From Eledone cirrhosa (taxonomy: Eukaryota): a stretch of DNA of 64,000 nucleotides. The DNA lies in assembly GCA_964016885.1 (NCBI GenBank), contig OZ024742.1, positions 362,762,001 through 362,826,000 of the forward strand, given 5' to 3'. The position numbers and the translations under genes were made by a program. Every line of letters begins with the position of its first letter. Within the stretch, counting starts at the first letter, position 1. Positions 26,080 through 55,041 of this stretch are shown piece after piece. The notes beneath the pieces are model-generated. The model made no database searches. It was not told where the DNA came from and was given only the letters and a program-made list of their open reading frames with translations.

Positions 26080-26820
26080 AGCTATTGCGTTGTAAATGTC
26101 TGAAATGGTTAACATATTTTACAGTTTTATTAGTGGATTGTACATTGAACATCCTCAATAGTTGTGCTCTTTCTGGCTCTGTGCCACCTATTTCTGAAGA
26201 TTTCTACTGAGCCAGCTAGTAGCATATACACTTGCTCCAATCATCAAAAGTACAAACCTAAATGTATAATCAGCGTTGAGTATCTGCAGAGTTCTCATCT
26301 GTGCAACTGATTTCCACATGAACTTTTGCGCATGTCTTCTGCTCCCTGTACTATATCACTATGTCTGGTCTATTATGTTTGCATCATATTTGAGTTTTGA
26401 TTGGAACATTCCACCAGTACTATCTCATATTGTGCCTGCGATGTCCTCTACATCACTGTAACATTGTGGGTCACATATATTCGGCGCAGAGAGTTTCGAA
26501 GAACATATTTTACTTAACCGTGTTTTATGTGCCCTGGTTACCTTGATTCAAATTCCATCATAGGATATATTTTCCTCTATAGTTAAGTATCTGTAGCAGT
26601 CCTCGTCAGATACTTGGCCAATGATAGATATGTTGTTAGTTTCTGATTTTTGAACGCTTTACAGTCACAACATTTCTCCTCACCAAACTCCATTCTCATT
26701 TCTAGAATGTCATAACGAGGCCAAGGTTTTTCTTCATACCATTTATATTCTTGGAATACACTTACAGATCGTCTACAAAGAAGCTACGTGCAAGGTTAGA
26801 ATTTCTGGCCTCCTGTGAAC
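26080..26820 (-). pseudogene. older degenerate R4-like RT fragment
   Basis: Reverse strand gives FFVDDL*VYSKNINGMKK and MEFGEEKC, paralleling FFVDDLKLY..MKFGESKC of the adjacent element. Confidence 0.6.
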
Positions 26821-27304: not shown

Positions 27305-29677
27305 CTACCAGTATTCCTTAGTGCCATCTGTCTCAATACATTCTTCCTCGTTTGTTGTTAATTTTGTTTTCCGAAGTGCGTTCCAGATGGTTCTAGCTAT
27401 CCCATCGTGTCTCATGGGGAGGTAGTAGCGAGATGACATTATTTCGCAGCTGGCAACAATGTGGCTTACATCCTCGATCTTTGTTTTACATAGCCTACAT
27501 TTATTGTCAGCTGTTGGCCCTCCTCTTTTGTGCAGCAGATATTTGGTAGGGAGTTCTTGTTCCAGTATTGCATAGCGATATCCCTCAAGGTGTGATATCA
27601 TAAACTTGTCGGAACTCCATGCCAGGCCTTTTGAGTGGTTTATACCCTCTATGGTCTGTGTTTTACGTCTCAAGTATCCATGCACAACTTTTTCTGTAAA
27701 TTGGTCAATTTTTTTATCTTGTTTGAACATTGAATAGGATCTTCCGATTTCTCTGGGTGAGAGATTTATATCAGGCTTTATTCCATATCCCTCCTCCAGA
27801 TCAGTCGCTATTCTAATGATATTTTTTCGTTCATGCTCATAAACCTGGGCAAGATGGTTGCCAACCTTTTTCCTCTGTTGAAGGTGTTGCTTCAGTATTA
27901 CTATCCGGGTCTCATATATTGTTAATATTGATTTTAGACCCTGGCCACCTTCCTTGCGTGTGCGTGAGAAGTATAGCATATCCACATCACCATTGATGTT
28001 AAAGTTCCCAGTAACACTGAGAAGTTTGCGAGTTCTAACATCCAACTCACTTAGTTGTTGCAATGACCAGTTCAGCAGGCCAAATGTTGGCGTTTGAATT
28101 GGCACAGCATAAGTATTGGGGGCAACGTATTTGTTGTATGCTGACAGTTCTGATGACCATATTTTCTTTACTCTTCTGAGGTATTCAGTTCTGGTTCTCT
28201 CCTCATTTATGGGTCCATCATATCTGACATTCTTATCCTGTCCAAGATATCTGTTGTTGTCACCTGACTGTAGAGGTTGTATTGTCAGGCCGTTTATCTC
28301 TAGATTTCTAGAGGAGGGCACAGCTCTTCCACGTTTTACTGCCAAATATGCACACTTGGACTCACCAAATTTCATTTTGATGTCGGTTGAAAATTGTGTA
28401 ATGAGGTCCAATTGTTTCTTGATGTCATTGATATTTGGCCCATACAACTTCAGGTCATCAACAAAGAAATGATGGGAGATACTTCTGGACCCACTTCTTT
28501 GTCCACCTTGTTTCCTGAGTAGGTAAGATAGTGGATTCAGTGAGAGAACGAAGAGTAGCACTGACAAGCTATCACCCTGAAAGATGCCCTTCTGGTAATG
28601 TATCTTATCAGTCTTAACTTGCTCCTTCTCACCTCTAAGGATCAAATTGGTGTACCAGTTCTTGGTCAGGCGTTCAACAGCAGCTACCAATGGTTGTGGG
28701 ACTTTGGCTAACTGTAAAGCCTTAATAATCCACCCATGAGGTACACTATCAAATGCTTTTTGATAGTCCAGCCACACCACAGTCATGTTTCTGCGATTCT
28801 TTGTTGTTTTTTCCTGAATCATTTTGTTAGTTAGTAGGTGATCTATGCAACCCCATACATCCCTCTTTCCACCAGCTTGCTCAAGTGTTATGATGTTGTT
28901 GGTAGCACAGTGATCCTGTAAGAACAGATTAAGGCACCCAGTATATAATTTATACATGATGTTTTGGCAGGCTATTGGGCAGTAACTTTTAGCAAGGGTG
29001 GTTTGGCTATTTTGGGGAATGAGGAGAGTAGTGGCAGTTGATAACCATCTGGGCAGTTCTTGTGTGCCTTTAATGGTTTCTGTAAACAGCCGTATGAGAT
29101 CTTGCCGATAGAAAGTGAAATTCTTCAACCAGTATCCTGTAATGAGGTCTGGGCCTGGCGATTTCCTATTCGACATTTTCTGTAGAGCTGTTTCCAGTAT
29201 TGACCCATCTATGTCATATTGTTTTGTCTGGATATGTTGGCAGTAGTCCTGTTCCAGTTCTTTTAGCCAATTAGTTTGTCTGTTGAATCCGTCACCCGTT
29301 TCCCATACAGATCTCCAGTAGCTCTCAACCTGTTCTTTTGAAGGGGTGTCATTTACAGGGATTGAGCTTTTGCCACCGAAGCTGCAATAAACTGATTTAG
29401 GATCTCTAGCAAACAATGTATTTAGCACTTGTCGTTTATGTGCTGTTGACTTATATTTTAGTCTTTCTGTTGTAGCTGTGAGTTGTTGTTTCAACTGGTG
29501 TAATTTGGAGTTCAAAATTTTAAATTTTGTATCTCCAAATCGTCTCTCTAACTTTTTTCTTTTAGGTCTTCCTGGTGTCGTGTGAAGTTGGTCTCTATTT
29601 TGCATTTCATAACGACTGCGATTTGTGAGATACTTCGTCTCAGGGACAAAAGTTTGCTTTTTAAATTTCGCATCCAC
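27305..29677 (-). pseudogene. R4-clade reverse transcriptase and zinc knuckle
   Basis: KSPGPD, PIAC, WLDYQKAFDSVPH, GIFQGDSLS, FVDDLKLY, YLG, CRLC..E...HI...C, YYLPMRHD. Confidence 0.9.
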
Positions 29678-31278
29678 GCTGGTTCAGGCTTTCTGTTTGT
29701 ATCTTGATTGCCTGGTTTTAGATGTGTGTTATATGATAGCAATGTGACAGCTGAAACATATCACAAAATATTAAGCGTTTCATGTCGTTTCAGATAATTG
29801 CGTTTCAGATAACAGCCTTCAGATAATTGCCAGCTATTTCGTTCACCGCTTCCAATTCCAATTTAGTAGGTTCTTTACTGATTCTGGTGTTGTATGGTCT
29901 GTCACTCACATTAAAGCTGTGTATATTTTGAAACATATCGTTCCATATCACTTGTAAGGTGTCCACAAGTTTTTGGTGTTCTGTTTGTTCAGTAGAGTTA
30001 TGAAGTTCAGCCTCGTTGTTGATGTGGTGACAATTACTACTAGAGTTAGCTGACCTTTCTCGCTGTTCTTCAGTGGAAGTGGGATGGATTTCAGCAAAAT
30101 TGTTGGTGAGCTGTTCACTGTTAGATTTAGCTTGCCATTCTCTTTGTCTGTCAGTGGAGGTGGGGTGGTTGTCTACAAGGGCTGTATGTGTAACATCACT
30201 CAATTCCGTTAGATGTATCAATTTACATCTAATGATACGTTTTGCCTGTTCATTTAAATGCTTTGGAGAAAAGTCTAATTCTGGGTGTTTGGAGTTCCAT
30301 AAAGTTTTTAGCCTTTGCATAAAACCTAACTTTTGGGATTCAGATTGTTTGTATGCTTCATATAATTCTTTGTTAAGCTCATAGCTCCACTGTGTACAAC
30401 GGTTGTAGTTGCGATTTGGTCGAAGGAGACTTGTACTTTTTGCCATGATGAGTTCGTCTATTCACTAATATTTCGTATTTATTTTTCAATATAGTCGATG
30501 ATCATCTTTAAAAGTTTCGACAAAGTTCTGTCAGAATCAAATTTAAAGTTATTCACAGCTTGGGTAATATTTCTTTTCAGTTAGTTTTTAATTCTACAAC
30601 TGTGTTTTAAACGTTGTTCTTGAATCGTTTGAATCGAGAACAAAAAGAACCGTTACTTAGAATATTTCGTTATGAATGTAATATAATATAACAACGCTGT
30701 ATTTATATGTTAAAGTTTATGTATCATTCATATAAATAGGTGTTCTACAACTTATTCACAACATATTCACAGTTCAAACACTTATGTTTTTGTTTCTGAA
30801 TCGAAAACGTTACTTGTATATTTCTTTATAAATGTAATATAACTGTTTCTACGTTAGGCACAAGGCCAACAATTACCCAGTGTATTACTGGTACTTTATT
30901 TTATCGACCCCGTAAGGATGAAAGGCAAAGTTAACCTCGGCGGGATTTGAACTCATAAATGTAATATAACAACGTTGCGTTTATATGTTAAAGTGTATGT
31001 ATCGTTCATATATCATAAGTGTATGTATCGTTCATATAAATAGGTGTTTTACAACACACTTACAGTTCAAACACTTATGTAGAATTATTGTATGTAATCT
31101 TACCGCGTAATGTAGCTCAACTCTTTCCAATATATGGTATGTTGTCTTCATGTAAGCCGTAATTACACACGTCCGATGATCGGACACTGACCACAACGGT
31201 TGCCATTATGTATGTATGTATGTATGTATGTATGTATGTATGTATGTATGTATGTATGTATGTATGTATGTATGTATG

Positions 31279-32947
31279 TCAGGTCACCAGTTGGTGCTAC
31301 TGGTAACATGTATCCCAGTACAACCTGTTCCATGGTCGGGTCGTTGGCGACTAAACTGGCAACCCCACTAAGGTTTCTTAGTGAGGAGGGTGACTTTGGA
31401 CATCCTGCAGGACTAAAAACAAAACCTGTCAAAGGGCAAAAGAGCTCTAAAGAGTCAATGGCCATCCAAAATCACCGGGAGAGATGACCCCTTAGCCTTT
31501 GTCAAGGCAGAATTCTAGGAGAAGGAAAACTCTGATATAACATCTGCAACCCTGATGGTATCCAATGATGTTGACTTGTTCTTCTTTTTGGTAAATATCA
31601 TCTTGGTTAAGAGAGTGGGACTGGGTTCGTGCAGTGCCTTTGCTCACTATAAAAGCTTCACGGCACAGGCATTGCTTTGTATCTGGAGATCTCTCTGCAC
31701 TTGTCATCACATGGTACCATGGGTCCAGCACTATGTGTCAATAATTGTCACAAGTGTAGTATTTGTACCAAACTTTTCAAGTCGCTGGCTGGACTAAAAA
31801 GTCGCACTCGTTCAGCGCATCGGTAGGGGTTCTCCTACATGGATATAAAGTAGTGGCCGTACTCGAAAACGAGTTGGCAGCCACCATGTATGTATGTACG
31901 TGTGTATGTCGGGTCACTCTTGAGTGCTACTAGTAACATGTAACTCAGTACAACCTGTCGCATGGTCGGGTCGTCGGCGACTAAACCGGCAAAAAACCAA
32001 GTATACTTGGTGATTTTGGACACCCTGCAGGACAAAAACAAAACAAAACCTGACAAAGGGCGGAAGAACACATAAGAGTCAACGGCCATCCGAAAGTGTG
32101 TAAATATGTATATACGCATGTACCGCGCGGTTAAACCACTGGAAGTGAAGGACCCCAAGCCTTTGTCAAGGCATTCTTCTAGGAGAAGGCAACTCAGGAA
32201 ACTGGGTTAACTCCGATAAAAAACCTGCGGCTCAGTAGTTACCGATGATGTTGATATTTTCTTCTTTTCGGGTTATAGCTGCTGTCGCTCGGGGAGTGGG
32301 ATTGGCTCAGTGCACAGTCTTTCTTCACTTTAAAAAATATCTTCACGCACAGGCATTGCATGATAGCATTAATTGATAATTATTAATAATGTAATATCGT
32401 GCAATGGCCGTACTCGATAATGAGAGGGCAGCCATCATCATGTATGTATGTATGTATGTATGTATGTATGTATGTATGTATGTATGTATGTATGTATCTA
32501 TGTATGCTCTTAAGAGTCAATGGCCATTCAAAATCACCGGGAGAGATGACCCCTTAGCCTTTGTCAAGGCAGAATTCTAGGAGAAGGAAAACTCTGATAT
32601 AACACCTGCAACCCTGATGGTATCCAATGATGTTGACTTGTTCTTCTTTTTGGTAAATATAATCTTGGTTAAGAGAGTGGGACTGGCTTTGTGCAGTACC
32701 TTTGCTCACTATAAAAGCTTCACGGCACAGGCATTGCTTTATATCTGGAGATCTCTCTGCACTTATCATCACATGGTACCATGGGCCCAGCACTATGTGT
32801 CAGTAATTGTCACAAGTGTAGTGTTTGTACCAGAGTTTTCATGTCGCAGGCTGGACTAAAAAGTCACACTCGTTCAGCGCATCGGTAGGGGTTCTCCTAC
32901 ATGGATATAAAGTAGTGGCCGTACTCGAAAACGAGTTGGCAGCCACC
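31279..32947 (+). mobile_element. three tandem non-coding SINE-like modules separated by (TATG)n
   Basis: A 31279-31885, B 31909-32439, C 32506-32947 (5'-truncated copy of A). All share CTAGGAGAAGG(A/C)AA and a terminal hairpin TGGCCGTACTCG..GAG..GGCAGCCA. Confidence 0.7.
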
Positions 32948-33920
32948 ATATATCTAAGTATGTATGTATGTTTCTAAGTATATTTGTAACTATGTATGTG
33001 TATGTATATGTACGTAACCACTTTATATATGTATAAAATATCACTTGTTTCTCCTACTTTCACTAATTCAGGGAAGCAATACATTTTTACTTATTTCAGT
33101 AATTAGTACAGACATTAGTACTTATGTATTTCAAACGTTAAGCCGTTATTTCGCCAAAAATATATATTTAAATATGAATTATGATTTTCAAGAAAATTTT
33201 ATTTGACATTTGTTTTAGCATTCATGTTTGTACTATTCTTCTTTATATCTTCCTTTATATGAAGTCACGTAGCTTAGTGATTAATGTGTTCAGGTGTTAA
33301 AGTTGGTTGGTTCTTGAGGGAACGCCGTGTCATTCCCCAAAGTACATTCTTTTACAATATCCTTGTCGACTCAGCTGGAGGTCATATATTGCTCAAGATA
33401 TTTTAAAGACCAGCCTTATAACACGTTGTATGACATCGTATTCTCCTCAGAACGATTAAAGTTATCCATATCTGTTAATATCTGGATTGGGTCATTTCGG
33501 TAGACCAGCTACTGCGACACCGTTAGAATTGAGGAGCGTCCATCAATACCTTCATATAATCTAACATAAAAAATAGTTACACATCCAACTCATACTCCAC
33601 CTCGTGTAACCAACCAGGCATCACTAAACGTACTAAAATAAAGGTTTTTTAAACACCTAATGAAAATTCCAGCTTCACATTCAAATAATTTCAGTAGTTT
33701 CTTGTATTTTATTTTGTGTAACCTTTCTATATAAGATTATATAAAGAGGGAATCCCTCTTCTAACTTTTACTAATGTCTGAGAATCAGCGAAATAAATCT
33801 CAGAATAACGTTGAGTAAAATTTTCAGCAATGAATAGGAACCAACTGTACATTTCCTATTGAGTACAATTTTGTAGAATTCCTTTTCCCAAAATATTTTG
33901 TGTTAAACCATACGCACACA

Positions 33921-37578: not shown

Positions 37579-38178
37579 TATATATATATACATATATATA
37601 TAAATATATACATATATATATATATACATATATATACACACACACACATATATATATATATACACACACACATATATATATATATACACACACACATATA
37701 TATATATATACACACACACACACATATATATATACACACATACATACACACACACACACATATATATATATATATTTAATTGTCGAATGACTCTTATGTA
37801 AAACCGCGTTTCATTGGTCAGATATCATGAATACTTGGCAGTGACACACCATTATAGAGTAATGGATGTCGAGGTTACATCAGGAAACTCTAAAATCCTA
37901 ATATTGATTTATAAATTAGGCAGAAAGCCAAACATTTACAGAGAAGGCGTATTGTCGCTAGAATAGACTCAAGTACATTATCGGGGGAGGCTAATTATCA
38001 GAGTCGTTAGAAAATCCAATAGTATGATTTGTGGCATTAATTCCGCCTCTCTCTCTGTTCTCAATTCAAATCCCACCGAATTCAACTTTGTTTTCTCTTT
38101 GTTTTCGAGTTCGATTACTTCTGGTCTAGGGTCGATTCCTTCTCAATACGTTTTTATCTCTGTCTCCTTCTCTGGAAT

Positions 38179-38709
38179 GATTCGGTATTGTTCAGACCCG
38201 TTGCGGAATGGGCTCCGCTAGGTTTCCATGCCAGTATCCCACTATAGTGCCAAGGATTCGGTATTGTTCAGACCCGTTGCGGAATGGGCTCCGCTAGGTT
38301 TCCATGCCAGTATCCCACTATAGTGCCAAGGATTCGGTATTGTTCAGACCCGTTGCGGGATGGGCTCCGCTAGGTTTCCATGCCAGTATCCCACTATAGT
38401 GCCAAGGATTCGGTATTGTTCAGACCCGTTGCGGGATGGGCTCCGCTAGGTTTCCATGCCAGTATCCCACTATAGTGCCAAGGATTCGGTATTGTTCAGA
38501 CCCGTTGCGGGATGGGCTACGCTAGGTTTCCATGCCAGTATCCCACTATAGTGCCAAGGATTCGGTATTGTTCAGACTCGTTGCGGGATGGGCTCCACTA
38601 GGTTTCCATGCCAGTATCCCACTATAGTGCCAAGGATTCGGTTGTGTTCAGACTCGTCGCGGGATGGGCTCCACTAGGTTTCCATGCCAGTATCCCACTA
38701 TAGTGCCAA
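38179..38709. repeat. 76-bp minisatellite, 7 copies
   Basis: Unit GGATTCGGTATTGTTCAGACCCGTTGCGGGATGGGCTCCGCTAGGTTTCCATGCCAGTATCCCACTATAGTGCCAA, starting at 38254, 38330, 38406, 38482, 38558, 38634. Confidence 0.95.
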
Positions 38710-39271
38710 CAAGACTTCTTCAGAATTTACGTGTCCATATATACGAATTATTGTATTGTATTTTATTGTTTCGGCATAGATTATGGTACTACGTGGGACG
38801 GTGGTTAAGTTGTTCGACATACTCTTGCCAAATAGTGAGTTCGGTTCCCGGATCAAGCCTAGTATTGAGGCCTTAACAAGACACTTTACACTGTTGAAGT
38901 CAAACATATTTTCATGTTGCTCCAGTGAACAAAGTTGGACAAACATGTGGTGCATTGATGATTTAAAAATTAACCTTGTTATACACCGTGTCACGCTGAA
39001 TATAGTAGAGAATTGATTTAAAGATACTAGTGTCACTTGCATGTTAATTTCAGGATGAGGCTATTTCCTTTATTAAACAACTGCATCGCTCACCGTCGGA
39101 ACCAACGGAGGTCCAACATAAACACAAATGCACACATTAATACACAAAAGAACACACATCCAGTTCGGAGTCTTGTATTGTTAGTCGCTTAAAGGGAAAT
39201 CGGGATAAACACCGGCCTGGTGATCTCGAGACAGGAAACATTATATATATATATATATATATATATATAAT

Positions 39272-40252
39272 GGCTTCTACATAACCTGGACATAATTTTC
39301 CCAACTTGTAGAAAATTTATAATGAAACAATTGTTTGGAAAGGGAGATGTATTTTAATTATGTCTCATATAAAATAATACAACTGGCTATCCGCAAAATA
39401 CATATAGTTAGCACCCCAAACGTAAAATTGGGATTATACTAAGGTATATCCTAATGTTTGTTGAGTGAGATAGAAGCCAGTCAGATTATTGCTTAAAGCT
39501 TTCTCTTTTAATGTATTAAATATTATACTCTTGATTTGGCCAGAGATGAATATTTCCAGATACCTTTTAAGTGTAACTTTCCGTATTTATTATTTGTATG
39601 AAATATTGATTGTTATTCTGGTATCTCATCTCTGTTTTTAGCCTAAGAAAATACCTATATGCGTGTATAAATAATACATGCATATATTTATTTTTTAAAA
39701 TCTAATTGAGTTCTTCACACGCAAGGTTAAAATTATTGAAAGAATTAATTGACCCGCGTGCATATTATTTTCTTTTCTTTTGTTTTGCGATGACCCCCCC
39801 CCCCCTTTCCGCTTGATGACAGTGTGAAATTTCTCATTCTGAGACTGCTGGAATTTCAAATTTGGCTGTCATTCTGACACGGAGGGTGACCATCGCTGAA
39901 CATTGGATATCGGTAAGAACATTTTTTTATATCGATGTTTGACGGGTATCCACTGATGATTTATAAGTGCCCACCTGCATATATTCATACGGACTATGTG
40001 TAGGCTTCTACATAACCTGGACATAATTTTCCCAACTTGTAGAAAACTTATAATGAAACAATTGTTTGGAAAGAGAGATGTATTTTAATTATGTCTCATA
40101 TAAAATAATACAACTGGCTATCCGCAAAATTCATATAGTTAGCACCCCAAACGTAAAATTGGGATTATACTAAGGTATATCCTAATGTTTGTTGAGTGAG
40201 ATGGAAGCCAGTCAGAGTATTGCTTAAAGCTTTCTCTGTTAATGTATTAAAT
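39272..40252 (+). mobile_element. non-autonomous hammerhead-bearing partial-tandem element (731-bp period)
   Basis: Direct repeats 39272-39522 and 40003-40252. No ORF. (TA)n on both sides. A second copy lies at 62036-62355(-). Confidence 0.8.
39949..40070 (+). ncRNA. type I hammerhead ribozyme with ~95-nt stem II region
   Basis: TCCA-CTGATGA-T-TTATAAGT...ACTTATAA-T-GAAA-CAATTG-TT-TGGA. Confidence 0.8.
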
Positions 40253-40264
40253 ATATATATATAT

Positions 40265-41020
40265 ATTTCATTAACAAATTCCAACCTCTACTTAATGCTC
40301 TAAAAATCGGACCAATCTAAAACTGCAACAAACAATCAAACATTTACAAGAGTTACCTCACTCACACCCTAACTGATCCTTTTTCTTAAATAAATTAAAT
40401 AGCATCTAGCAAGAATTGCTTCCCCCTGCATATTAACTCTCTAAAAAGGTAAATCATATCAAACCTCAGTCCACCATTTGCCTCCATCATGGAATCATAG
40501 ATCAACTAAGCACTCTTGCTATATTAACACATTTTGATGTGCTTAACTTCAAGAACTATGCTTGTAAATAACATTAGTTTTTCTTCCATATTGACATTTT
40601 ATGCTCTACATTATTTCCGTTTTCTTTTTCTTTTTTCTTTTTTTTTTCTTTTTTCTTTTTTCTTTTTTCTTTTTTCTTTTTTCTTTTTTCTTTTCACTTT
40701 TCACTTCATAAACCTAGTTTGTAAACAACATTATTCTTTCTGCACCTTCTCTTTAACATGTGTGACACCGCACTAATACATTTCACTATCATTTGATAAT
40801 GCATAAAAATGCTGAAACCGGTAATAGACAATTATTAAATATATAAGTAGATAAATAAATGCCATTGTTAAATAATAAATAAATCAACTAATACCTTAAG
40901 ACTTCACATAAAGTAAAACATTTCGTTTTAATCATTTTCTAACCCAGAAAAAAGATAGAGAGAAACAAAAAAGGAAAAAAAAAAATGTTTTCTTCCTAAT
41001 AATCGCCTCTTTCTCCCTGT

Positions 41021-41026
<6 letters not shown>
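40265..41026 (+). mobile_element. 5'-truncated Neptune-like PLE 3' end
   Basis: Begins FINKFQPLLNALKIGPI*, compare FLNKFKPKLNGL at the end of ORF 12262-14109. U3-A8 hammerhead at 40786-40827 (TTGATAA-T-GCAT aaaa ATGC-T-GAAA-CCGG-TA). Confidence 0.65.
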
Positions 41027-41056
<30 letters not shown>

Positions 41057-41111
41057 CAGGGAGAAAGAGACGATTATTAGGAAGAAAAATATTTTTTTTT
41101 CCTCTTTTGTT

Positions 41112-41143
<32 letters not shown>

Positions 41144-41179
41144 TATATATGTGTATATATGTATATATAAATGTATATA

Positions 41180-41212
<33 letters not shown>

Positions 41213-41218
<6 letters not shown>

Positions 41219-41782
41219 GACGTAAAATAAGAAAATTATGAAAATTAACTTACTTACAAAAATTTCACTCCAACTAATTAGTTTCTGAAAGGGAATAAAT
41301 ATGGTTTCCGGATGGAACATGGAGAATACCTTTCGTCATCAGGAAGTCAATTCTCAGCTAAGTTCCCAGGCGATGCGTGGACACAGGGAACTTATACAAA
41401 AATAATTCAGTGGATGGAAAAAAGCAAGCGAGGACTAAATTCCAAGACATTGAACAAATCACTGCCTACTTCGTCGGTGGCAAATTCAAAAGAATCAAAC
41501 ACGTGACATCGAGGTTAATCAGTGAGGAGTGGGGTGTTAAGAAGACAGTAGCCGGACTATTACTATGAACTATAGTAGTAGTCTTGGCAAATTTTTGCTC
41601 AACAAAATAATTTGGAGATAATTATAAAGAATTAGTATATCTTATTTTCCTATTTTACGTCTTTCATATAATTGTTCTGCATCCCCTTGCATTGAACCAC
41701 AAAGTTATTATGACAAAACCTATATATTTGGTAGAATAGGTATGCATCTGTATATATATGTTGGTAGATATACTAATTCTTT
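41213..41782 (-). mobile_element. short PLE-type element with hammerhead and inverted end
   Basis: 41212-41236 is an inverted copy of 41644-41668. Flanked by (TA)n. Confidence 0.6.
41267..41347 (-). ncRNA. type I hammerhead ribozyme with extended stem II
   Basis: Reverse strand reads ACTTC-CTGATGA-C-GAAAGG..ATGTTCC atcc GGAAACCAT..CCTTTC-A-GAAA-CTAATTAG-TT-GGAGT. Confidence 0.78.
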
Positions 41783-41821
41783 ATATATATATATATAGAC
41801 AGGTAACATTATATATATATA

Positions 41822-41884
<63 letters not shown>

Positions 41885-41887
<3 letters not shown>

Positions 41888-42153
41888 GTTTCCTGTCTCG
41901 AGCTCACCAGGCCGGTGTTTATGCGACTGACAATAAAAGCCTCCGACCTGGACGAGTGTTCCTTTGTGTATTAATGTGTGCATTTGTGTTTGTGTTGGAC
42001 CTCCCTTCGTTCCGACGGTGAGCGATGCAGTTGTTTAATAAAGGAAATAGCCTCATCCTGTAATTAACATGCAAGTGACACTAGTATCTTTAAATCAATT
42101 CTCTACTATATTCAGCGTGACACGGTGTATAACAAGGTTAATCTTTAAATCAT
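41885..42153 (-). repeat. inverted duplicate of 38957-39242 (SINE tail + adjacent sequence)
   Basis: AATGTTTCCTGTCTCGAG...CACGGTGTATAACAAGGTTAAT is the reverse complement of the DNA immediately left of the (TA)n at 39243. Confidence 0.88.
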
Positions 42154-42211
42154 GATTTCCAGAAATAGCCATCGAAACGGCTTGAGCTCTGCCGTCGGGG
42201 TCATACATTTT

Positions 42212-42263
<52 letters not shown>

Positions 42264-43186: not shown

Positions 43187-44024
43187 GTAGATAAATCTAC
43201 CAAGAGTTTACGGTAGTGTCCAATCCGTATGAAGAACTCAATGTATTCCGGACATCATGGAAAGAAGAGATGTAATGAAAATCCAATTTCGGTGAAAGAT
43301 AAACGGTATACAGAGTCAAGATAAAATATTAAACAAATAATGAACAAACAATTCCTTATATTAAACAAAAAAAGTTCACTATTTAACGATCGTTTCTAGG
43401 GTATATATGTGTTATAATTGGTATGCATATTTAACAGATCTATGTACAAAATTATACAAAATTATACAAATTATCAAGATTAAATATACATACCTAACTC
43501 ATATATACGCCGTCTTCAGAAATAATGAAGTATATTTATTGATAATAACAACAATTCAAAATATCAGTTCAAAATTGACCAATGAAAACACAAAGGGTTA
43601 AAAAGCAGTTTGGTGTGTGTATATACATGTAAAACCCTACACACATTTTACAATAATGTGTGTATAATTTGTATGTGCATACTAAAAAGATGGATGCAAA
43701 TAAAAAATTTCAAGGTTAATATCTCTGTAAGCTTAATGCGCTGATAAGATACGCAATGATACTTATGGAGTCAAGCATATAAATATATTTTTTTCATACT
43801 CACACATATCAGTATAATCACACATACATGTGCGTATATATATAAATATACACATAACCACGAACACACAAACACACACACTCCCCCACTCACATTTATA
43901 TATGTGGATATAAAATCATAAGCAAATAGAAATTAAGTCACTCACATAAACACACTGGTACACACATTTCAAGATCAAGATACAGAAATTAGGTGGGAGG
44001 GGGGGGGAGGGGTCAGTATTAGGT
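43186..44024 (-). mobile_element. extra inverted pLTR of the Naiad-type PLE carrying the longer 3' tail
   Basis: 43321-44024 matches 45436-46139. 43186-43320 is additional tail ending at (TA)n. Hammerhead at 43375-43529(-). Confidence 0.85.
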
Positions 44025-46412
44025 ATTAGGTATTTTACGTTTGGTGTTCAAACCCAACATGGTCAAGAGAAATACCAGTAAAATACTCGGGTAGAGATAC
44101 ACAACGTTCCCCTTCAATTAGAAATATTTTCCAAGATGGTAAAGGGTTGAGGATCGACAAAGTCGGTAGAGCGTCCGACAAAGATTTAGCAGTATTTGTT
44201 CCCAATCTTTACTTTCTGAGTTCAAATCCAACCTAGGTCAACTTTACTTCTCATCCTTCCAAGGTCTATAAAATAAAATAACCGTTAATTATTGGTGTCG
44301 AAATAATCAACTTTCCCTTCCTCCAATATTGAGTCCTTGGGCCTAATTTAGAAAACAAAATAAAAACATCAGAATGGCTAATTTAAAAGCCTGTATTCCA
44401 GCAACCCAGTGGGCTGTTTCATTCTTTCAAATTAAATCTGTCCTCACTAGACATACACACTTCGACTCACACACATATGTTTCCCTTTTTATTATATACA
44501 TATTCAAACACGCCTTTCACTACATAAACTTACATTCATGCACACACATACATCCCACTAAGCACACATACATACATCCCACTAAGCACACTTACTTTCA
44601 CGCCCACTCATGCATATAACATACACTTTTTCCTAGATATTTCACAACGCGCCCGCTCGAAATTTTAACGTATTTTCATTGCATTAAATCTGTAAAGATA
44701 TCATCCTCGGTCGTTCCTTTACGTCTCTCACAGAGATATTCCCTTGATAATGGGTTTTTAAATTTGCTAAGGTAAGAATCTATTTTTATCTTACCAATTT
44801 TAATTTTCTAGCGACAATTTTGAGGCGGAGAGAGTCGACTAAATCGACCCCAGGACATTACTGGTACTTTGTTTTATCAACCCCGCAAGGATAAAAGACA
44901 AAGCTAACCTCAGCAGGATTTTAACTAAGATCGTAAAGGGTCGTAACTCTATGTCATAAAGTATGTTGTCAGACGCCTTATCGATACTGCCAATCCATCG
45001 CACTCAAAAAACCTTTATTATATTAAATCATGTTGAAAGATTTTATTTAAAACGGTCATTTTAAAATGTGTAGTTTTGATTTATACAACAGAGACCTGTT
45101 TAAAACTTCATTTTTAGGCCATGCTGGAGCACTGCCAAGAATAAAAATTGTGTTTATAACGTCTGTTAGTTACGATACTGAAGATTTTATTGCACTGTTT
45201 TTGTTTTCATTTTTGTTTTTCTTATTTACTTCCAATGTTTATATACTCTTCACGGTTGACTGTTCATGGTTGGTTGTTTACTATGTGTAGTTCTAGAGGT
45301 GTATGTTATGGAAAGATTTATTTCCATTCTCCATTTGCCTCTTATCTTTTGGAAATATATATGTGTGTGTTCGTGTGTATGTATACATGCATGTATATAT
45401 ATATATATACATTGATATATATATATATATATATATAAAATATTAAACAAATAATGAACAAACAATTCCTTATATTAAACAAAAAAAGTTCACTATTTAA
45501 CGATCGTTTCTAGGGTATATATGTGTTATAATTGGTATGCATATTTAACAGATCTATGTACAAAATTATACAAAATTATACAAATTATCAAGATTAAATA
45601 TACATACCTAACTCATATATACGCCGTCTTCAGAAATAATGAAGTATATTTATTGATAATAACAACAATTCAAAATATCAGTTCAAAATTGACCAATGAA
45701 AACACAAAGGGTTAAAAAGCAGTTTGGTGTGTGTATATACATGTAAAACCCTACACACATTTTACAATAATGTGTGTATAATTTGTATGTGCATACTAAA
45801 AAGATGGATGCAAATAAAAAATTTCAAGGTTAATATCTCTGTAAGCTTAATGCGCTGATAAGATACGCAATGATACTTATGGAGTCAAGCATATAAATAT
45901 ATTTTTTTCATACTCACACATATCAGTATAATCACACATACATGTGCGTATATATATAAATATACACATAACCACGAACACACAAACACACACACTCCCC
46001 CACTCACATTTATATATGTGGATATAAAATCATAAGCAAATAGAAATTAAGTCACTCACATAAACACACTGGTACACACATTTCAAGATCAAGATACAGA
46101 AATTAGGTGGGAGGGGGGGGGGAGGGGTCAGTATTAGGTTGTCAGACCAGACAGCCTAATATAAATGTATCTATAAATTATGAAAAATAAAAAAATAAAA
46201 ACAATAAAATATATTACATATAATATAATGTACATACGCATACAGATATACATACACATACATACATGTACGCGCACATAGAGATATCTACACATACATA
46301 CATACACACATACCTATACTGTCATACACACACATACATTTACACGAACATACACATACACATATAAAAAGATAAAAATACAGACACACACACGCGCAAT
46401 ACATACACACAT

Positions 46413-46461
<49 letters not shown>

Positions 46462-46572
46462 TATACACACGCACATAGACTCATATATATATACACATAC
46501 ACATACATATACTTATACATAAACATATATATCCCACACTCATACCACCATGAGAACACATACAAACATCCA

Positions 46573-46615
<43 letters not shown>

Positions 46616-46832
46616 ACATACACACACGTACACATATATGCATATATACATACATATATACACACATACACATATATATATACACACACACATAAAATAC
46701 AGACATGCACATATATATATATATATATATATATATTTCATTACTCTTATATATACACATAGTATATATACATACACAACCTCACTTATACACATATACA
46801 CATAAGTTATATTACAATAATAATAAAGAATA

Positions 46833-46863
<31 letters not shown>

Positions 46864-47002
46864 TATACACACATATACACATATACATACACATACATAC
46901 ATATATATACATACATACACATACATACATACACCTAAATATAAACATATATAAATACACACATACGAATAAAGACATATATTCACACATAGACACCTAT
47001 AT

Positions 47003-47044
<42 letters not shown>

Positions 47045-47072
47045 ATATACACACACATACACATACATACAC

Positions 47073-47108
<36 letters not shown>

Positions 47109-47130
47109 GCACACACATACAGACACACAT

Positions 47131-47166
<36 letters not shown>

Positions 47167-48892
47167 GTGTATGTGAGTGTGCGCAAATACATACATATAT
47201 ATACATACACACATACAAACACACACAAACACATACAAATGCATACGTGCACACACACACACATATATCACATAGATACGAAGATAAACATATAAATAGA
47301 GAGACATACAAATATATACAGAACCCATATACACATACATACAAACACGCATATACATATATATACATATATACACACATATATATTCCTATATACAAGC
47401 ATACACATACACACACATATATACATATACATACACATATATATATCACACATTCACATACACGTACATATATAATATACATATATATACATATATATAC
47501 ATACATATGTATGTACAATCATATATACACACTCAATCTTACATTCATATTTACATGCTCATATATGTATTTTTATATTTAGAAATAAATACCAAAAAAA
47601 CTATATAGAACCCATCTACACATATATTCATACATATACACTTACAAAAACAGATGATAATAGTATGGGGGAAAGGGGGGGGTTTGGAGAAGGGGATCAA
47701 AGTAAATATATGTTTCAAGAAACCTATAATATTTTCCATATCTTAATTCAATGTATGTTCTTACATATTTTCAGTGCTAGGAAATACGAAATCTATGCAT
47801 CACAAAATAAAAAAGTATACCATTAATCATATGTCAACTAAACCAAAGATAGTCAACATATTGATTTCCAAGGTGTAAATTAGTTAGGTTTATAATATTT
47901 GAAGCAGAATTATGAAGTCAAACAGTAGTAGATTATTAATTACATTATAACTAAATTAAAGTTAATAACGTTATGGTATCAATATTAGGAGATGAATTTA
48001 GTAATAGGGAAAAGAAACCCAAATAAAAATAAAATAAAGTATTACATCGGTAGTAGCATATAAATTATATGTTAACTAAGTTAAAAATTATATATTTATT
48101 TCAATAGTATATGTTAATTAGTATATGTTAATTAGGTATACAATACATAAAGCAGATATTGTATTTCATCAATAGCATAATATAATTATATGCAAATAAA
48201 AATCAAAATTAATACGCATACACATACATATACATACACATACACATACATATACATATACATACACATATATATATATATATATACATATATATACACA
48301 TACATACATATATAGTCACATAAATATACATACAGATACACATACAATACATACATATACATATACATATAGATATACATATCTTTTTCAAAAAATTTGC
48401 ACAGAATATATTAACTAGGTATATATCCAAAAACACTTCCCATTCTATGATTACATGAAATTCTGCAATTCGTCTGTACAAGGATACTAATTTTAAGCAA
48501 ATTAAAATTAAAATTAAAGTTTTAGGTTGATTAAAGCTAAAACCAAATAATAAATATATTTCCAAAATGTATATTAATTAGGTCAATAATACTAAAAATT
48601 CTTTCTCCGTCATAGGATACATGATATTATTTTGTTATATTTTATCTGTAAAAGAATTATAATAAAAAAAATTATAATAAAAGGTTAAACTAAATTAAAA
48701 AATTATAATAAAAGGTTAAAATAAGTTAAAATTAATCTATAAATTAAATTACTGAATATATATTAGTAATATTTAAAGGTTTTTCAAAATTAATGATTAC
48801 ATAATATTTTCTCATCTGTAATAAAATATTAATTAAATTAAATTTATAGGTTAACTAACATTTAAATTAAATTAAATTCTAGAATAATGTTA

Positions 48893-49937
48893 TTAATTAG
48901 GTTTATAATATTTAAATGTTTTTTTTAGTTTATGATTACACGATATAATTAATTCCTGTCTTTTATTTAATAAGATATCCCTAGACTTCATTATTTCAAA
49001 TAGTTCTTGGGAACATAATCTACATTCCTTTCTATTATTTTGATAAGGGGTGGCTCTTTTGAGCACACTCCAGGTCAAATCATATTTTATATTTTTATTT
49101 TTATAACTATTGATTTTTTCTGCTAGAGATGTTGTATTAGCCAGTGCGGCATTTTTAAAGCTATGTTTGTGGGTATTATACCTTGTCTTAAAATTGTTAG
49201 AGGTAGCTCCTATATATGAGCAAATAGAATCTTTAGTTTTAACATTACATTTATAGACTATGTTGTTAACAAGACAATTCCCTTTTAATGGGCAGTTTGT
49301 TTTGTTTCTACAGTTACATCCTTTCGTTAATTCTGTATTTGAGGAGATATTATTGTTAATTTGATGTACTGGTGGTATACTTATAGTTTTCTTACATTTA
49401 TATGCATTATATGCACTTATATTTTGTTTTATGTTATTTGTTGTAGAATATGAGAATTTAACTGTAGACCTATTTAAGATTTGATGGTATTTGTGGTTTG
49501 GCGGGAAGTTTTTCTCAAGGATATAAAAAAATTTTTTAGCAATATTATCCTTAACTTGTAAATTAAAAGGAGCATTATACCAAGTAACCCGTCTATTACG
49601 GTTTCTATGTTGTTTATTATTTTTATTATTTTTATATGTTGTATCATGATTTTTACTAGGAGGAATAATGTTAATGATAACACCACAACTATTTTTAGTT
49701 ATATTTGTAGATTTAGGTGTTTTATCTTTTTTATTAGGAGTTTTATTATTAATATTTATTATAGTCTTATGATGAGTAGTTTTTTGAGGGTTACTATACT
49801 TTATATTAGAAGATTTAGTATTTTGGGGTATACTGTGGGTGGCATTTAGGTGTGTACTTTTCATTTGGTGTTTGTTGGTAATATTATGCTGTATGTTTTC
49901 AGTATTTTTAGTAGAAGTTATATACTCTAATCTATTT
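48893..49937 (-). pseudogene. inverted duplicate of Naiad-type linker + GIY-YIG
   Basis: Translation from NRLEYITS onward is identical to ORF 49839-51566. Confidence 0.92.
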
Positions 49938-51566
49938 GCTAAAAATAGATCTAATTTAACTTCGGATGACATTAACATTATTACACATGCTAGACAAACA
50001 CTTATTGAATTTCAGAATGAATACTGGACCAGAAACACTTATAGTAATCTTTTTGATATTACTATGGGTTCAAGCGATTCTGCCCAAATTACTGATCTTG
50101 TGGGCCTCTTTCTCCTTTTCAACATAAATGCCTCTTTTCCCCACCTCAAAGGTGGTTTATATCGTGATGACTGTCTTCTTCTTTCTAACAACCTTAGCCT
50201 TTCAGAAATCGAAAAAAACAAAAAGCATATTAGAACTTTCCTTAAAGACTATTATAATCTTAATATTACTTTTGAAAAAACAAGTAAAGTAGTAAATTTC
50301 CTAGATATAACTTTAGATTTAGCTACGGGTATATACCAACCTTACCATAAACCTAACCAAAACTTACATTACATACACTCACAATCTAATCACCCTAAAT
50401 CTATCCTTAAAAACCTTGCATATAATATATCACTTAGAATTTCTAACCTTTCTTCTAACCAAGATGTATTTGATAAAAATGCGACCTTTTATAATGAAGC
50501 TCTAGATAGAAGTGGCCACAAAAATAGATTAGAGTATATAACTTCTACTAAAAATACTGAAAACATACAGCATAATATTACCAACAAACACCAAATGAAA
50601 AGTACACACCTAAATGCCACCCACAGTATACCCCAAAATACTAAATCTTCTAATATAAAGTATAGTAACCCTCAAAAAACTACTCATCATAAGACTATAA
50701 TAAATATTAATAATAAAACTCCTAATAAAAAAGATAAAACACCTAAATCTACAAATATAACTAAAAATAGTTGTGGTGTTATCATTAACATTATTCCTCC
50801 TAGTAAAAATCATGATACAACATATAAAAATAATAAAAATAATAAACAACATAGAAACCGTAATAGACGGGTTACTTGGTATAATGCTCCTTTTAATTTA
50901 CAAGTTAAGGATAATATTGCTAAAAAATTTTTTTATATCCTTGAGAAAAACTTCCCGCCAAACCACAAATACCATCAAATCTTAAATAGGTCTACAGTTA
51001 AATTCTCATATTCTACAACAAATAACATAAAACAAAATATAAGTGCATATAATGCATATAAATGTAAGAAAACTATAAGTATACCACCAGTACATCAAAT
51101 TAACAATAATATCTCCTCAAATACAGAATTAACGAAAGGATGTAACTGTAGAAACAAAACAAACTGCCCATTAAAAGGGAATTGTCTTGTTAACAACATA
51201 GTCTATAAATGTAATGTTAAAACTAAAGATTCTATTTGCTCATATATAGGAGCTACCTCTAACAATTTTAAGACAAGGTATAATACCCACAAACATAGCT
51301 TTAAAAATGCCGCACTGGCTAATACAACATCTCTAGCAGAAAAAATCAATAGTTATAAAAATAAAAATATAAAATATGATTTGACCTGGAGTGTGCTCAA
51401 AAGAGCCACCCCTTATCAAAATAATAGAAAGGAATGTAGATTATGTTCCCAAGAACTATTTGAAATAATGAAGTCTAGGGATATCTTATTAAATAAAAGA
51501 CAGGAATTAATTATATCGTGTAATCATAAACTAAAAAAAACATTTAAATATTATAAACCTAATTAA
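49938..51566 (+). CDS. 5'-truncated Naiad-type PLE RT C-terminal half + GIY-YIG endonuclease
   Basis: FDITMGSSDSAQITDLVGL, GLYRDD, VNFLDITLDL, YHKPN..YIH..SNHP, WYNAPFN, CNCR..CPLKGNC, IVYKC..YIGAT..FKTRY..H..SF, CRLC..E, LLNKRQE..CNH. The listed start at 49839 lies within the inverted arm. Confidence 0.9.
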   Translation, partial: AKNRSNLTSDDINIITHARQTLIEFQNEYWTRNTYSNLFDITMGSSDSAQITDLVGLFLLFNINASFPHLKGGLYRDDCLLLSNNLSLSEIEKNKKHIRTFLKDYYNLNITFEKTSKVVNFLDITLDLATGIYQPYHKPNQNLHYIHSQSNHPKSILKNLAYNISLRISNLSSNQDVFDKNATFYNEALDRSGHKNRLEYITSTKNTENIQHNITNKHQMKSTHLNATHSIPQNTKSSNIKYSNPQKTTHHKTIININNKTPNKKDKTPKSTNITKNSCGVIINIIPPSKNHDTTYKNNKNNKQHRNRNRRVTWYNAPFNLQVKDNIAKKFFYILEKNFPPNHKYHQILNRSTVKFSYSTTNNIKQNISAYNAYKCKKTISIPPVHQINNNISSNTELTKGCNCRNKTNCPLKGNCLVNNIVYKCNVKTKDSICSYIGATSNNFKTRYNTHKHSFKNAALANTTSLAEKINSYKNKNIKYDLTWSVLKRATPYQNNRKECRLCSQELFEIMKSRDILLNKRQELIISCNHKLKKTFKYYKPN

Positions 51567-53286
51567 TAACATTATTCTAGAATTTAATTTAATTTAAATG
51601 TTAGTTAACCTATAAATTTAATTTAATTAATATTTTATTACAGATGAGAAAATATTATGTAATCATTAATTTTGAAAAACCTTTAAATATTACTAATATA
51701 TATTCAGTAATTTAATTTATAGATTAATTTTAACTTATTTTAACCTTTTATTATAATTTTTTAATTTAGTTTAACCTTTTATTATAATTTTTTTTATTAT
51801 AATTCTTTTACAGATAAAATATAACAAAATAATATCATGTATCCTATGACGGAGAAAGAATTTTTAGTATTATTGACCTAATTAATATACATTTTGGAAA
51901 TATATTTATTATTTGGTTTTAGCTTTAATCAACCTAAAACTTTAATTTTAATTTTAATTTGCTTAAAATTAGTATCCTTGTACAGACGAATTGCAGAATT
52001 TCATGTAATCATAGAATGGGAAGTGTTTTTGGATATATACCTAGTTAATATATTCTGTGCAAATTTTTTGAAAAAGATATGTATATCTATATGTATATGT
52101 ATATGTATGTATTGTATGTGTATCTGTATGTATATTTATGTGACTATATATGTATGTATGTGTATATATATGTATATATATATATATATATGTGTATGTA
52201 TATGTATATGTATGTGTATGTATATGTATGTGTATGCGTATTAATTTTGATTTTTATTTGCATATAATTATATTATGCTATTGATGAAATACAATATCTG
52301 CTTTATGTATTGTATACCTAATTAACATATACTAATTAACATATACTATTGAAATAAATATATAATTTTTAACTTAGTTAACATATAATTTATATGCTAC
52401 TACCGATGTAATACTTTATTTTATTTTTATTTGGGTTTCTTTTCCCTATTACTAAATTCATCTCCTAATATTGATACCATAACGTTATTAACTTTAATTT
52501 AGTTATAATGTAATTAATAATCTACTACTGTTTGACTTCATAATTCTGCTTCAAATATTATAAACCTAACTAATTTACACCTTGGAAATCAATATGTTGA
52601 CTATCTTTGGTTTAGTTGACATATGATTAATGGTATACTTTTTTATTTTGTGATGCATAGATTTCGTATTTCCTAGCACTGAAAATATGTAAGAACATAC
52701 ATTGAATTAAGATATGGAAAATATTATAGGTTTCTTGAAACATATATTTACTTTGATCCCCTTCTCCAAACCCCCCCCTTTCCCCCATACTATTATCATC
52801 TGTTTTTGTAAGTGTATATGTATGAATATATGTGTAGATGGGTTCTATATAGTTTTTTTGGTATTTATTTCTAAATATAAAAATACATATATGAGCATGT
52901 AAATATGAATGTAAGATTGAGTGTGTATATATGATTGTACATACATATGTATGTATATATATGTATATATATGTATATTATATATGTACGTGTATGTGAA
53001 TGTGTGATATATATATGTGTATGTATATGTATATATGTGTGTGTATGTGTATGCTTGTATATAGGAATATATATGTGTGTATATATGTATATATATGTAT
53101 ATGCGTGTTTGTATGTATGTGTATATGGGTTCTGTATATATTTGTATGTCTCTCTATTTATATGTTTATCTTCGTATCTATGTGATATATGTGTGTGTGT
53201 GTGCACGTATGCATTTGTATGTGTTTGTGTGTGTTTGTATGTGTGTATGTATATATATGTATGTATTTGCGCACACTCACATACAC

Positions 53287-53322
<36 letters not shown>

Positions 53323-53344
53323 ATGTGTGTCTGTATGTGTGTGC

Positions 53345-53380
<36 letters not shown>

Positions 53381-53408
53381 GTGTATGTATGTGTATGTGT
53401 GTGTATAT

Positions 53409-53450
<42 letters not shown>

Positions 53451-53589
53451 ATATAGGTGTCTATGTGTGAATATATGTCTTTATTCGTATGTGTGTATTT
53501 ATATATGTTTATATTTAGGTGTATGTATGTATGTGTATGTATGTATATATATGTATGTATGTGTATGTATATGTGTATATGTGTGTATA

Positions 53590-53620
<31 letters not shown>

Positions 53621-53837
53621 TATTCTTTATTATTATTGTAATATAACTTATGTGTATATGTGTATAAGTGAGGTTGTGTATGTATATATACTATGTGTAT
53701 ATATAAGAGTAATGAAATATATATATATATATATATATATATGTGCATGTCTGTATTTTATGTGTGTGTGTATATATATATGTGTATGTGTGTATATATG
53801 TATGTATATATGCATATATGTGTACGTGTGTGTATGT

Positions 53838-53882
<45 letters not shown>

Positions 53883-53993
53883 TGGATGTTTGTATGTGTT
53901 CTCATGGTGGTATGAGTGTGGGATATATATGTTTATGTATAAGTATATGTATGTGTATGTGTATATATATATGAGTCTATGTGCGTGTGTATA

Positions 53994-54042
<49 letters not shown>

Positions 54043-54810
54043 ATGTGTGTATGTATTGCGCGTGTGTGTGTCTGTATTTTTATCTTTTTATATGTGTATG
54101 TGTATGTTCGTGTAAATGTATGTGTGTGTATGACAGTATAGGTATGTGTGTATGTATGTATGTGTAGATATCTCTATGTGCGCGTACATGTATGTATGTG
54201 TATGTATATCTGTATGCGTATGTACATTATATTATATGTAATATATTTTATTGTTTTTATTTTTTTATTTTTCATAATTTATAGATACATTTATATTAGG
54301 CTGTCTGGTCTGACAACCTAATACTGACCCCTCCCCCCCCCTCCCACCTAATTTCTGTATCTTGATCTTGAAATGTGTGTACCAGTGTGTTTATGTGAGT
54401 GACTTAATTTCTATTTGCTTATGATTTTATATCCACATATATAAATGTGAGTGGGGGAGTGTGTGTGTTTGTGTGTTCGTGGTTATGTGTATATTTATAT
54501 ATATACGCACATGTATGTGTGATTATACTGATATGTGTGAGTATGAAAAAAATATATTTATATGCTTGACTCCATAAGTATCATTGCGTATCTTATCAGC
54601 GCATTAAGCTTACAGAGATATTAACCTTGAAATTTTTTATTTGCATCCATCTTTTTAGTATGCACATACAAATTATACACACATTATTGTAAAATGTGTG
54701 TAGGGTTTTACATGTATATACACACACCAAACTGCTTTTTAACCCTTTGTGTTTTCATTGGTCAATTTTGAACTGATATTTTGAATTGTTGTTATTATCA
54801 ATAAATATAC

Positions 54811-54965
54811 TTCATTATTTCTGAAGACGGCGTATATATGAGTTAGGTATGTATATTTAATCTTGATAATTTGTATAATTTTGTATAATTTTGTACATAG
54901 ATCTGTTAAATATGCATACCAATTATAACACATATATACCCTAGAAACGATCGTTAAATAGTGAA
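54811..54965 (+). ncRNA. type I hammerhead ribozyme with 116-nt stem II region (copies at 45489-45643 and 43375-43529, minus)
   Basis: Stem I TTCATTATTT/AAATAGTGAA, CTGAAGA, stem II including GGTATGTATATTTAA/TTAAATATGCATACC, GAAA, palindromic CGATCG, GTT site. Confidence 0.85.
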
Positions 54966-55010
54966 CTTTTTTTGTTTAATATAAGGAATTGTTTGTTCAT
55001 TATTTGTTTA

Positions 55011-55041
<31 letters not shown>

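Follow-up and report, generated by a model that had tools for sequence, protein, structure and literature searches.

Known Inverted Structures at Retroelement Junctions

Inverted sequence at insertion junctions has been described in several systems. For EN+ PLEs, two studies report inverted 5'-truncated copies, inverted pLTRs and targeting of (TA)n, with self-priming as the proposed cause (PMC8557442, PMC3846280), and the purified protein of another PLE was shown in vitro to cleave AT-rich DNA on both strands and to extend both (PMC11167929). How the PLE 5' end is joined, and what causes the inverted structures, are both stated as open (PMC8557442, PMC11167929). Outside the PLEs, one L1 insertion has been attributed to a reciprocal end that folded back, copied itself and was ligated to the RT end, giving an inverted duplication (PMC11702581, Fig. 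S9C). For R2 in PRINT, the cDNA 3' end snaps back onto itself or, less often, onto nearby rDNA, and these junctions form a minor class (PMC11371274). Fold-back also templates inverted duplications, mostly of 5–34 bp, at double-strand breaks (DSBs) in yeast (PMC11724301), and further host fold-back duplications at breaks are known (PMC13645644, PMC7954356).

The window analyzed here, a 64,000-nucleotide stretch of Eledone cirrhosa contig OZ024742.1 in which all positions are counted from the first letter, contains a locus at 38958-42213 that shares features with each of these systems. As with the inverted pLTRs described for PLEs, an inverted segment lies directly at a truncated PLE 5' junction. 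Nine of 14 junctions in the window are of the inverted-pLTR kind; at this locus, however, the inverted segment is upstream target DNA centered on (TA)n, not element sequence. The product is identical to that described for the L1 reciprocal end, namely an inverted upstream flank between the fold point and the insert's 5' end, and the mechanism proposed for L1 is the one that the initial annotation had put forward for this locus. The L1 observation is a single case from L1-expressing human cells with priming by chance homology, whereas the Eledone loci involve a PLE and a self-complementary microsatellite fold and number two within a 64-kb genomic stretch. R2 snap-back offers a likeness in DNA-templated synthesis from the cDNA 3' end before the 5' junction is made (route B below), but was described for an engineered R2 at an rDNA site, without a (TA)n target. 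The duplications at DSBs likewise arise locally from a broken end and are captured by end joining, although they are mostly much shorter and need no retroelement.

What appears to be new is the inversion of host flank at a PLE 5' junction; the kind of event is known from the fold-back and snap-back junctions of L1 and R2, where it is a rare outcome. We found no report of an inverted target-flank duplication for PLEs in the mainly open-access literature that could be searched in part, and an earlier report may exist. The available portions of two further sources (PMC13282606; bioRxiv 10.64898/2026.07.22.740005) hold nothing on a flank-inversion structure.

An Inverted Copy of the Target Flank

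The sequence at 38958-39241 (+; left arm, 284 bp) recurs in inverted orientation at 41886-42153 (-; right arm, 268 bp). BLASTN aligns the two over 284 columns at 89.8% with one gap (E = 2.7e-109), and in a global alignment 13 of 268 aligned columns are mismatched (95.1% identity), with an extra 16-bp segment in the left arm only. The arms are separated by 2644 bp and at their inner ends meet the remnants of a central tract, (TA)14 at 39242-39269 on the left and (TA)n(TG)n(TA)n at 41810-41885 on the right, with the same TA phase at both. In an all-pairs comparison of the flanks of 64 TA tracts (4096 left/right flank pairs, with families and duplications traced by hand), this pair scored 69, and the best other pair that could not be traced by hand scored 26. 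The structure is real, and the right arm most probably arose by copying the left one locally in inverted orientation; the locus as a whole has no evident function.

An inverted copy of the ~285 bp to the left of the (TA)n had been placed at 41885-42153 in the initial annotation, with a PLE-type tail and (TA)n immediately after it. This was borne out: the arms end within 1 bp of those positions, and the tail (42154-42213) and a (TA)n tract (42214-42261) follow the right arm directly. The length of ~285 bp is correct for the left arm and too great for the right.

Immediately upstream of the left arm, and unduplicated, lies a degenerate tRNA-type SINE head with 5' body (38790-38957, +, start approximate), which was delimited with nhmmer, its A and B boxes being read by eye from the sequence. 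nhmmer matches this head to 6214-6325 (E = 2.3e-5) and 60812-60690 (E = 6.8e-4). BLASTN, global alignment and nhmmer divide the left arm itself, the putative template, into a SINE-like center and a TA-proximal 120 bp; the arm is largely SINE-derived, for it forms the 3' portion of a degenerate, SINE-like copy whose end lies at (TA)n. Because the SINE-like head continues only upstream of the left arm, the left arm is, judging by the sequence, the original copy.

Within the window, the center of the left arm (39035-39117) is 71% identical to 58083-58165 and has a second distant relative at 33402-33544 (E = 0.021), and the TA-proximal 120 bp has no third match (best E = 1.3). The SINE-like family is thus dispersed, yet the arm version, and any near-identical copy of the whole 284-bp segment, is present in the 64 kb as the two arms alone. 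This favors local copying, since the arms are 95% identical to each other and other family copies in the window reach 71% or less. The initial annotation had allowed that the arms would be separate insertions if the full segment were a dispersed repeat with many independent copies; over the 64 kb that were covered, this is not the picture given by the weak relatives of the center and the matchless proximal part. The repeats of the window look like octopus repeats, which we presume them to be.

Divergence Between the Arms

Mismatches between the arms are unevenly spread, with 2 in the 134 columns of the distal half versus 11 in the 134 of the proximal half (Fisher p = 0.019, for a split chosen post hoc, after the data had been seen). 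Seven of them cluster at 39148-39183, beside the 16-bp gap, and an equally strong cluster arose in 5 of 200 permutations. When polarized with two outgroup copies, substitutions fall on both arms, about 2–3 sites each way, and therefore fit ageing in place. Simple ageing does not explain the unevenness. The cluster may have come from conversion by a further copy of the family; no donor for it was found within the window. Error-prone copying, which would have left all changes on the new arm, was also considered and is ruled out by the same outgroup polarity. The locus had been described as an older case, and its arm divergence of 4.9%, set against 0 of 43 at the second locus (62361-62481), agrees with that description, while the patchiness of the divergence speaks against reading it simply as age.

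The PLE-Type Tail

The 60-bp tail (42154-42213, +) reads as a 5'-truncated PLE-type 3' end that retains part of a type-I hammerhead, namely stem II (3' strand), GAAA, a stem III of 5 bp and the GUC site. The motif is half-complete, with the 5' (CUGANGA) half absent, and no coding sequence linked to the tail occurs within the window. A paralog at 1838-1960 agrees with it at 56 positions and differs at 7. Both end 3' at the same base (42213 and 1838, respectively), each at (TA)n, and so together display the fixed 3' end at (TA)n and variable 5' truncation that serve to recognize PLEs. The paralog is moreover a head-to-head palindrome, which gives the tail's family the tandem or inverted pLTR arrangement, and its loop 3 is palindromic; a palindromic loop 3 is among the traits listed for PLE hammerheads in PMC4209133. 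The hammerhead half-motif occurs 5 times in the window versus 0–2 times in each of 20 shuffles, so that a single match is modest evidence. As the 5' half of the ribozyme and an attached ORF are both absent, we grade the tail as PLE-type, short of a proven PLE member.

A perfect 12-bp palindrome (42147-42158) spans the junction of arm and tail; perfect palindromes of this length are found at 40 of 52472 unmasked positions in the window. It might be a trace of microhomology to the loop of stem II, or of a second snap-back on a small scale. In a collection of prokaryotic contigs, which is uninformative on the copy number of the tail, an exact 22-nt pattern from the tail returned no stretches, and a PLE protein pattern returned 34 matches with no confirmed locus. 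A 13-nt tail motif is absent from one supplementary file of PMC8557442.

Sequence Between the Arms

Three other elements had been reported to fill the central (TA)n, and all three are present. Element A (39272-40250, +) is a PLE-type partial tandem with a 252-bp direct repeat, a complete type-I hammerhead at 39953 and a 3' end at (TA)8. Element B (40267-41023, +) is a probable PLE 3' part whose 3' end lies at (TA)14; it carries a loose minimal hammerhead motif at 40814, was missed by the strict hammerhead descriptor and gave no protein match. Element C (41215-41666, -, with its body at 41215-41622) is a PLE 3' part with a complete type-I hammerhead at 41342 and a 3' end at (TA)n. The strict type-I descriptor finds 5 sites in the window, compared to 0–2 in 20 shuffles.

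The spacer also holds pieces beyond these elements, namely an inverted end of B, a piece that we call D, and a short copy of the arm end. The last ~69 bp of B are repeated in inverted orientation across (TA)14 at 41054-41121 (-; 65 matches, 4 mismatches, 1 gap column), and the far end of this copy adjoins (TC)n(TA)n instead of the 5' end of a PLE. The 5' junction of C (41623-41668) combines both kinds of inverted sequence in series: a 20-bp inverted copy of the end of D plus TATA, followed by 23 bp in which C's own 3' end is repeated in inverted orientation, plus ATATA. Piece D itself (41669-41781, 113 bp) has no other match in the window. At 41797-41809 (+) there is a 13-bp direct copy of the left-arm end, equivalent to an inverted copy of the right-arm start, with 1 mismatch; its score of 21 is not significant alone, given that 11 of 250 mismatched pairs reached 20 (a null inflated by real duplicates). 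Since an arm end, a TA tract and ATG bracket the spacer on both sides, there is a weak hint that the palindrome formed before the spacer was inserted.

A Second Locus and PLE 5' Junctions in the Window

The same order of parts recurs at 62037-62481 (-), which consists of (TA)n, a 5'-truncated family-A PLE with a complete hammerhead (62037-62355), 5 bp of filler, a 43-bp inverted flank copy starting at 62361, (TA)n and the flank. The inverted copy is identical at 43 of 43 positions (locus z = -13.7), and the flank sequence that was copied has no other match in the 64-kb window. Complete type-I hammerheads of family A are located at 39953 (+) and 62325 (-), and its 3' ends meet TA at 40251 and 62036; hammerhead, partial tandem and (TA)n end, the features by which PLEs are recognized, are all found in this family.

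Fourteen PLE-type 5' junctions in the window were read by hand, after those of 5423-5561, 5658-5769, 16331-17300, 18223-18470 and the 31294-32971 family had been dropped as unreadable. Inverted element sequence was found at nine (1838, 6576, 7021, 21327, 21706, 41643, 49938, 62822, and 63464), a count that includes the 21327/63464 family as presumed PLEs. Inverted upstream flank occurs at two (42154 and 62356), elements A and B have direct TA joins, and one junction is complex (43320). At 49938 the inverted copy continues past the 3' end of the element into about 4.3 kb of downstream flank, a read-through that requires DNA as its template, provided that the assembly is correct.

The initial annotation had expected PLE insertion to produce inverted rather than direct target duplications. 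With inverted flank at only 2 of the 14 readable 5' junctions, that expectation is not supported as a rule, and inverted flank duplication is a minority outcome of PLE junctions. Direct duplications are undetectable inside (TA)n, and direct TSDs of 8–10 bp are described at Adineta Penelope copies (PMC3846280).

Fold-backs on self-complementary tracts that end at a microsatellite, without a PLE, are located at 40953-41121, 41797-41898 and 6000-6097. Two of five self-complementary-tract fold-backs therefore end at an oriented PLE 5' end; given a PLE-type cover of about 31%, P is about 0.18 at 0.16 per case, calculated by hand, and in the window by itself the link of fold-backs to PLEs does not reach significance. 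Hairpins at 18132-18179 and 19809-19845 were kept out of all counts, as they look like the conserved internal stem-loop of one repeat family.

Proposed Origin and Alternatives

Our preferred reading, which we hold to be somewhat better than an even chance, is that the locus is the repair scar of a PLE insertion at (TA)n, in which the flank was inverted while the upstream end was being joined and the arms were later pushed apart. A cut by the PLE protein inside (TA)n would have left a downstream end on which it primed cDNA, and just 60 nt of this cDNA would have been kept. The 284 bp of upstream flank would then have been reverse-copied between the tract and the cDNA, giving the right arm seen at the locus, and this may have happened in either of two ways. 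In route A, the (TA)n at the upstream 3' end would form a hairpin, copy its own flank and be joined to the cDNA. By route B, the 3' end of the cDNA would switch onto the flank 284 bp upstream and copy towards the break, gaining a 3' (TA)k that could anneal to the upstream 3' (TA)m, as the self-complementarity of TA allows. Elements A, B and C and piece D would have entered the central tract afterwards, separating the arms.

Within the repair-scar explanation, route A (a target-end hairpin) takes a little under half of the weight, route B (cDNA snap-back onto the flank) takes the same, and a small remainder goes to the copying of a local transcript. Routes A and B and reverse transcription of a local transcript yield the same sequence, which cannot choose among them. 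Route B gains no support from elements that repeat their own 3' end head-to-head, because priming on both strands would produce such copies too. The inverted internal pieces at 6585-6632 and 62824-62920, together with the mixed junction of C, favor DNA-templated switching, and the fold-backs without a PLE favor route A or an origin in host repair. Inverted templated pieces are the rule at PLE 5' junctions in the window and count as support for the repair scar, as does the recurrence at 62037-62481 with a PLE that carries a complete hammerhead. From the window by itself, duplication and insertion are not proven to have been a single event, and the locus is probably, not certainly, a PLE scar.

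The alternative with a real, if minority, claim is an inversion by host repair or replication, independent of retrotransposition. At (TA)n, a broken or stalled end would fold, copy the flank and switch into a resident PLE, leaving 60 bp of it. About 31% of the window is PLE-type DNA by our own intervals, the far end lacks a PLE in three of the fold-backs on self-complementary tracts, and the junction palindrome at 42147-42158 may be owed to a further, smaller snap-back. In yeast, simple DSBs give rise to inverted duplications by fold-back (PMC11724301), and breaks in TA repeats are mended through MMEJ (PMC13645644); the yeast events, however, are mostly 5–34 bp, compared to 284 bp here. The PLE piece in both clear cases is 5'-truncated, correctly oriented and intact up to the TA junction, and inverted templated pieces at most PLE 5' ends in the window tie such copying to insertion, all of which weighs against a host-only event. 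If the link to PLEs fails, the locus becomes an ordinary fold-back repair scar.

It is improbable, though still worth weighing, that a young SINE subfamily supplied the right arm as an independent, 5'-truncated retrocopy, inserted tail-to-tail in the same (TA)n and perhaps joined head-to-head to the PLE tail by two-end priming. The arm is indeed the 3' part of a SINE-like copy ending at (TA)n, the mismatch cluster at 39148-39183 could reflect a different source copy, and oppositely oriented two-RNA insertions are described for L1 (PMC11702581), as is extension of both strands by a PLE protein (PMC11167929). Against this, no other copy in the 64 kb exceeds 71%, the proximal 120 bp has no other copy there at all, only 2 of the distal 134 columns are mismatched, and the second locus copies sequence that has no other match in the window. 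The long inverted arm pair enclosing 2.6 kb also invites comparison with a DNA element bearing long terminal inverted repeats (38958-42153), which is very improbable: the left arm continues past the boundary into the SINE-like head, the arms lack the flanking direct duplication of a TIR transposon or MITE, and the interior, made up of PLE pieces and TA tracts, holds no ORF that reaches 150 aa. A fold-back artifact of sequencing or assembly has the slightest chance of all, even with a near-perfect 5.9-kb inverted duplication elsewhere in the window (14 differing columns in 5921), since the arms here enclose several distinct elements and are set apart by 13 substitutions and a 16-bp gap.

Implications for PLE Insertion

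Junctions that copy host flank show that DNA of the insertion site served as template, and they make the question of PLE 5'-end joining countable genome-wide. At such a junction an explanation by a second RNA fails, unless that RNA is a local transcript. A broader rule, which we put forward tentatively and think rather less likely to hold than to fail, is that (TA)n-targeting PLEs routinely close the 5' junction through the self-complementarity of the target, either by folding of one 3' (TA)n end or by annealing of two. If true, it would account for inverted pLTRs, upstream-flank inversions and downstream-flank read-through, and it would place PLEs among the main sources of newly formed palindromes in animal genomes rich in microsatellites.

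Scars of this type can be mistaken for terminal inverted repeats or for hairpin RNA genes. Two TA-centered palindromes in the window drew weak miRNA-model scores, below the gathering scores, from Rfam, and only sub-threshold miRNA matches on microsatellite hairpins appear among the best 150 of 170 Rfam rows.

Pfam returned no families for four ORFs of the window. For one ORF (12061-14109, +) 1817 homologues were found, and the homologues listed carry RT and GIY-YIG domains, according to their precomputed domain labels. Animal-named homologues among the matches listed are few and come from bivalves. Coding PLEs of families other than that of the tail are present in the window, as at 12061-14109.

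Inverted Duplications and Palindromes

A near-perfect inverted duplication of 5.9 kb, with arms at 44021-49937 and 50522-56433, is centered on 584 bp of RT sequence from a Penelope-like element (PLE), and takes in the PLE 3' half together with ~4.3 kb of flank. When the arms were aligned, 14 of 5921 columns differed, one of them by substitution. An additional copied segment (43321-44024), which terminates at a (TA)n tract, accompanies the duplication. The structure represents either a very young event or an assembly artefact.

Smaller inverted structures were also observed. The head-to-head palindrome at 1838-1960 belongs to the same family as the 60-bp, 5'-truncated PLE-type tail at 42154-42213, and its center coincides with the expected position of the stem II loop of the hammerhead (the type-I ribozyme motif near the PLE 3' end), a position suggestive of snap-back at a natural hairpin. 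A nested palindrome at 5359-5637 (113 matches and 7 mismatches in alignment) reads in the order flank, (TA)n, 60-bp arm, loop, arm, (TA)n, and inverted flank. Two short fold-backs lie nearby. The one at 5767-5817 has a PLE-like tail on one side and (TC)n(TA)n on the other; the one at 6000-6097 is centered on a CA/TG tract, and its far end lacks a PLE.

PLE Copies and Hammerhead-Like Motifs

The PLE at 7021-15528 has the textbook layout, in which (TA)n is followed by an inverted 5'-truncated copy, a direct terminal repeat, and a long copy. The long copy carries a 408-aa frame (10689-11915) and a 682-aa RT/GIY-YIG frame (12061-14109); the 3' region of the element contains long microsatellites. 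Another PLE, represented by its 3' part (21706-22910), includes a GIY-YIG-like frame and a complete hammerhead at 22712; its boundary is formed by a copy of its own 3' end, 170 bp long and in inverted orientation. Relatives occur at 16336-16361 and 18223-18470. The GIY-YIG region of a decayed PLE was located at 16936-17253, with a 23-bp tandem repeat (16.6 copies, 16418-16798) upstream of it in the same element.

Hammerhead-like features were found in other repeats as well. Both copies of a TA-tailed family (6631-6967 and 63084-63414) have a hammerhead-like long stem III and an inverted internal piece on the 5' side. A short distance upstream of the SINE-like left arm (38958-39241), a 76-bp unit is repeated seven times at 98% identity (38176-38709); the minus-strand end of this array, possibly a PLE-derived minisatellite, shows a loose hammerhead-like motif. 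Another loose motif, at 32092, falls inside a partially tandem family (31294-32971; 466 bp, 95%) flanked by (TATG)n tracts.

Other Repeats

A non-LTR reverse transcriptase open frame of 792 aa was found on the minus strand at 27305-29683. A further frame lies upstream of it (29805-30461), and a decayed relative is present at 26455-26794. Two copies of one further repeat share a conserved stem-loop (18132-18179 and 19809-19845), which may resemble a Helitron-like end.
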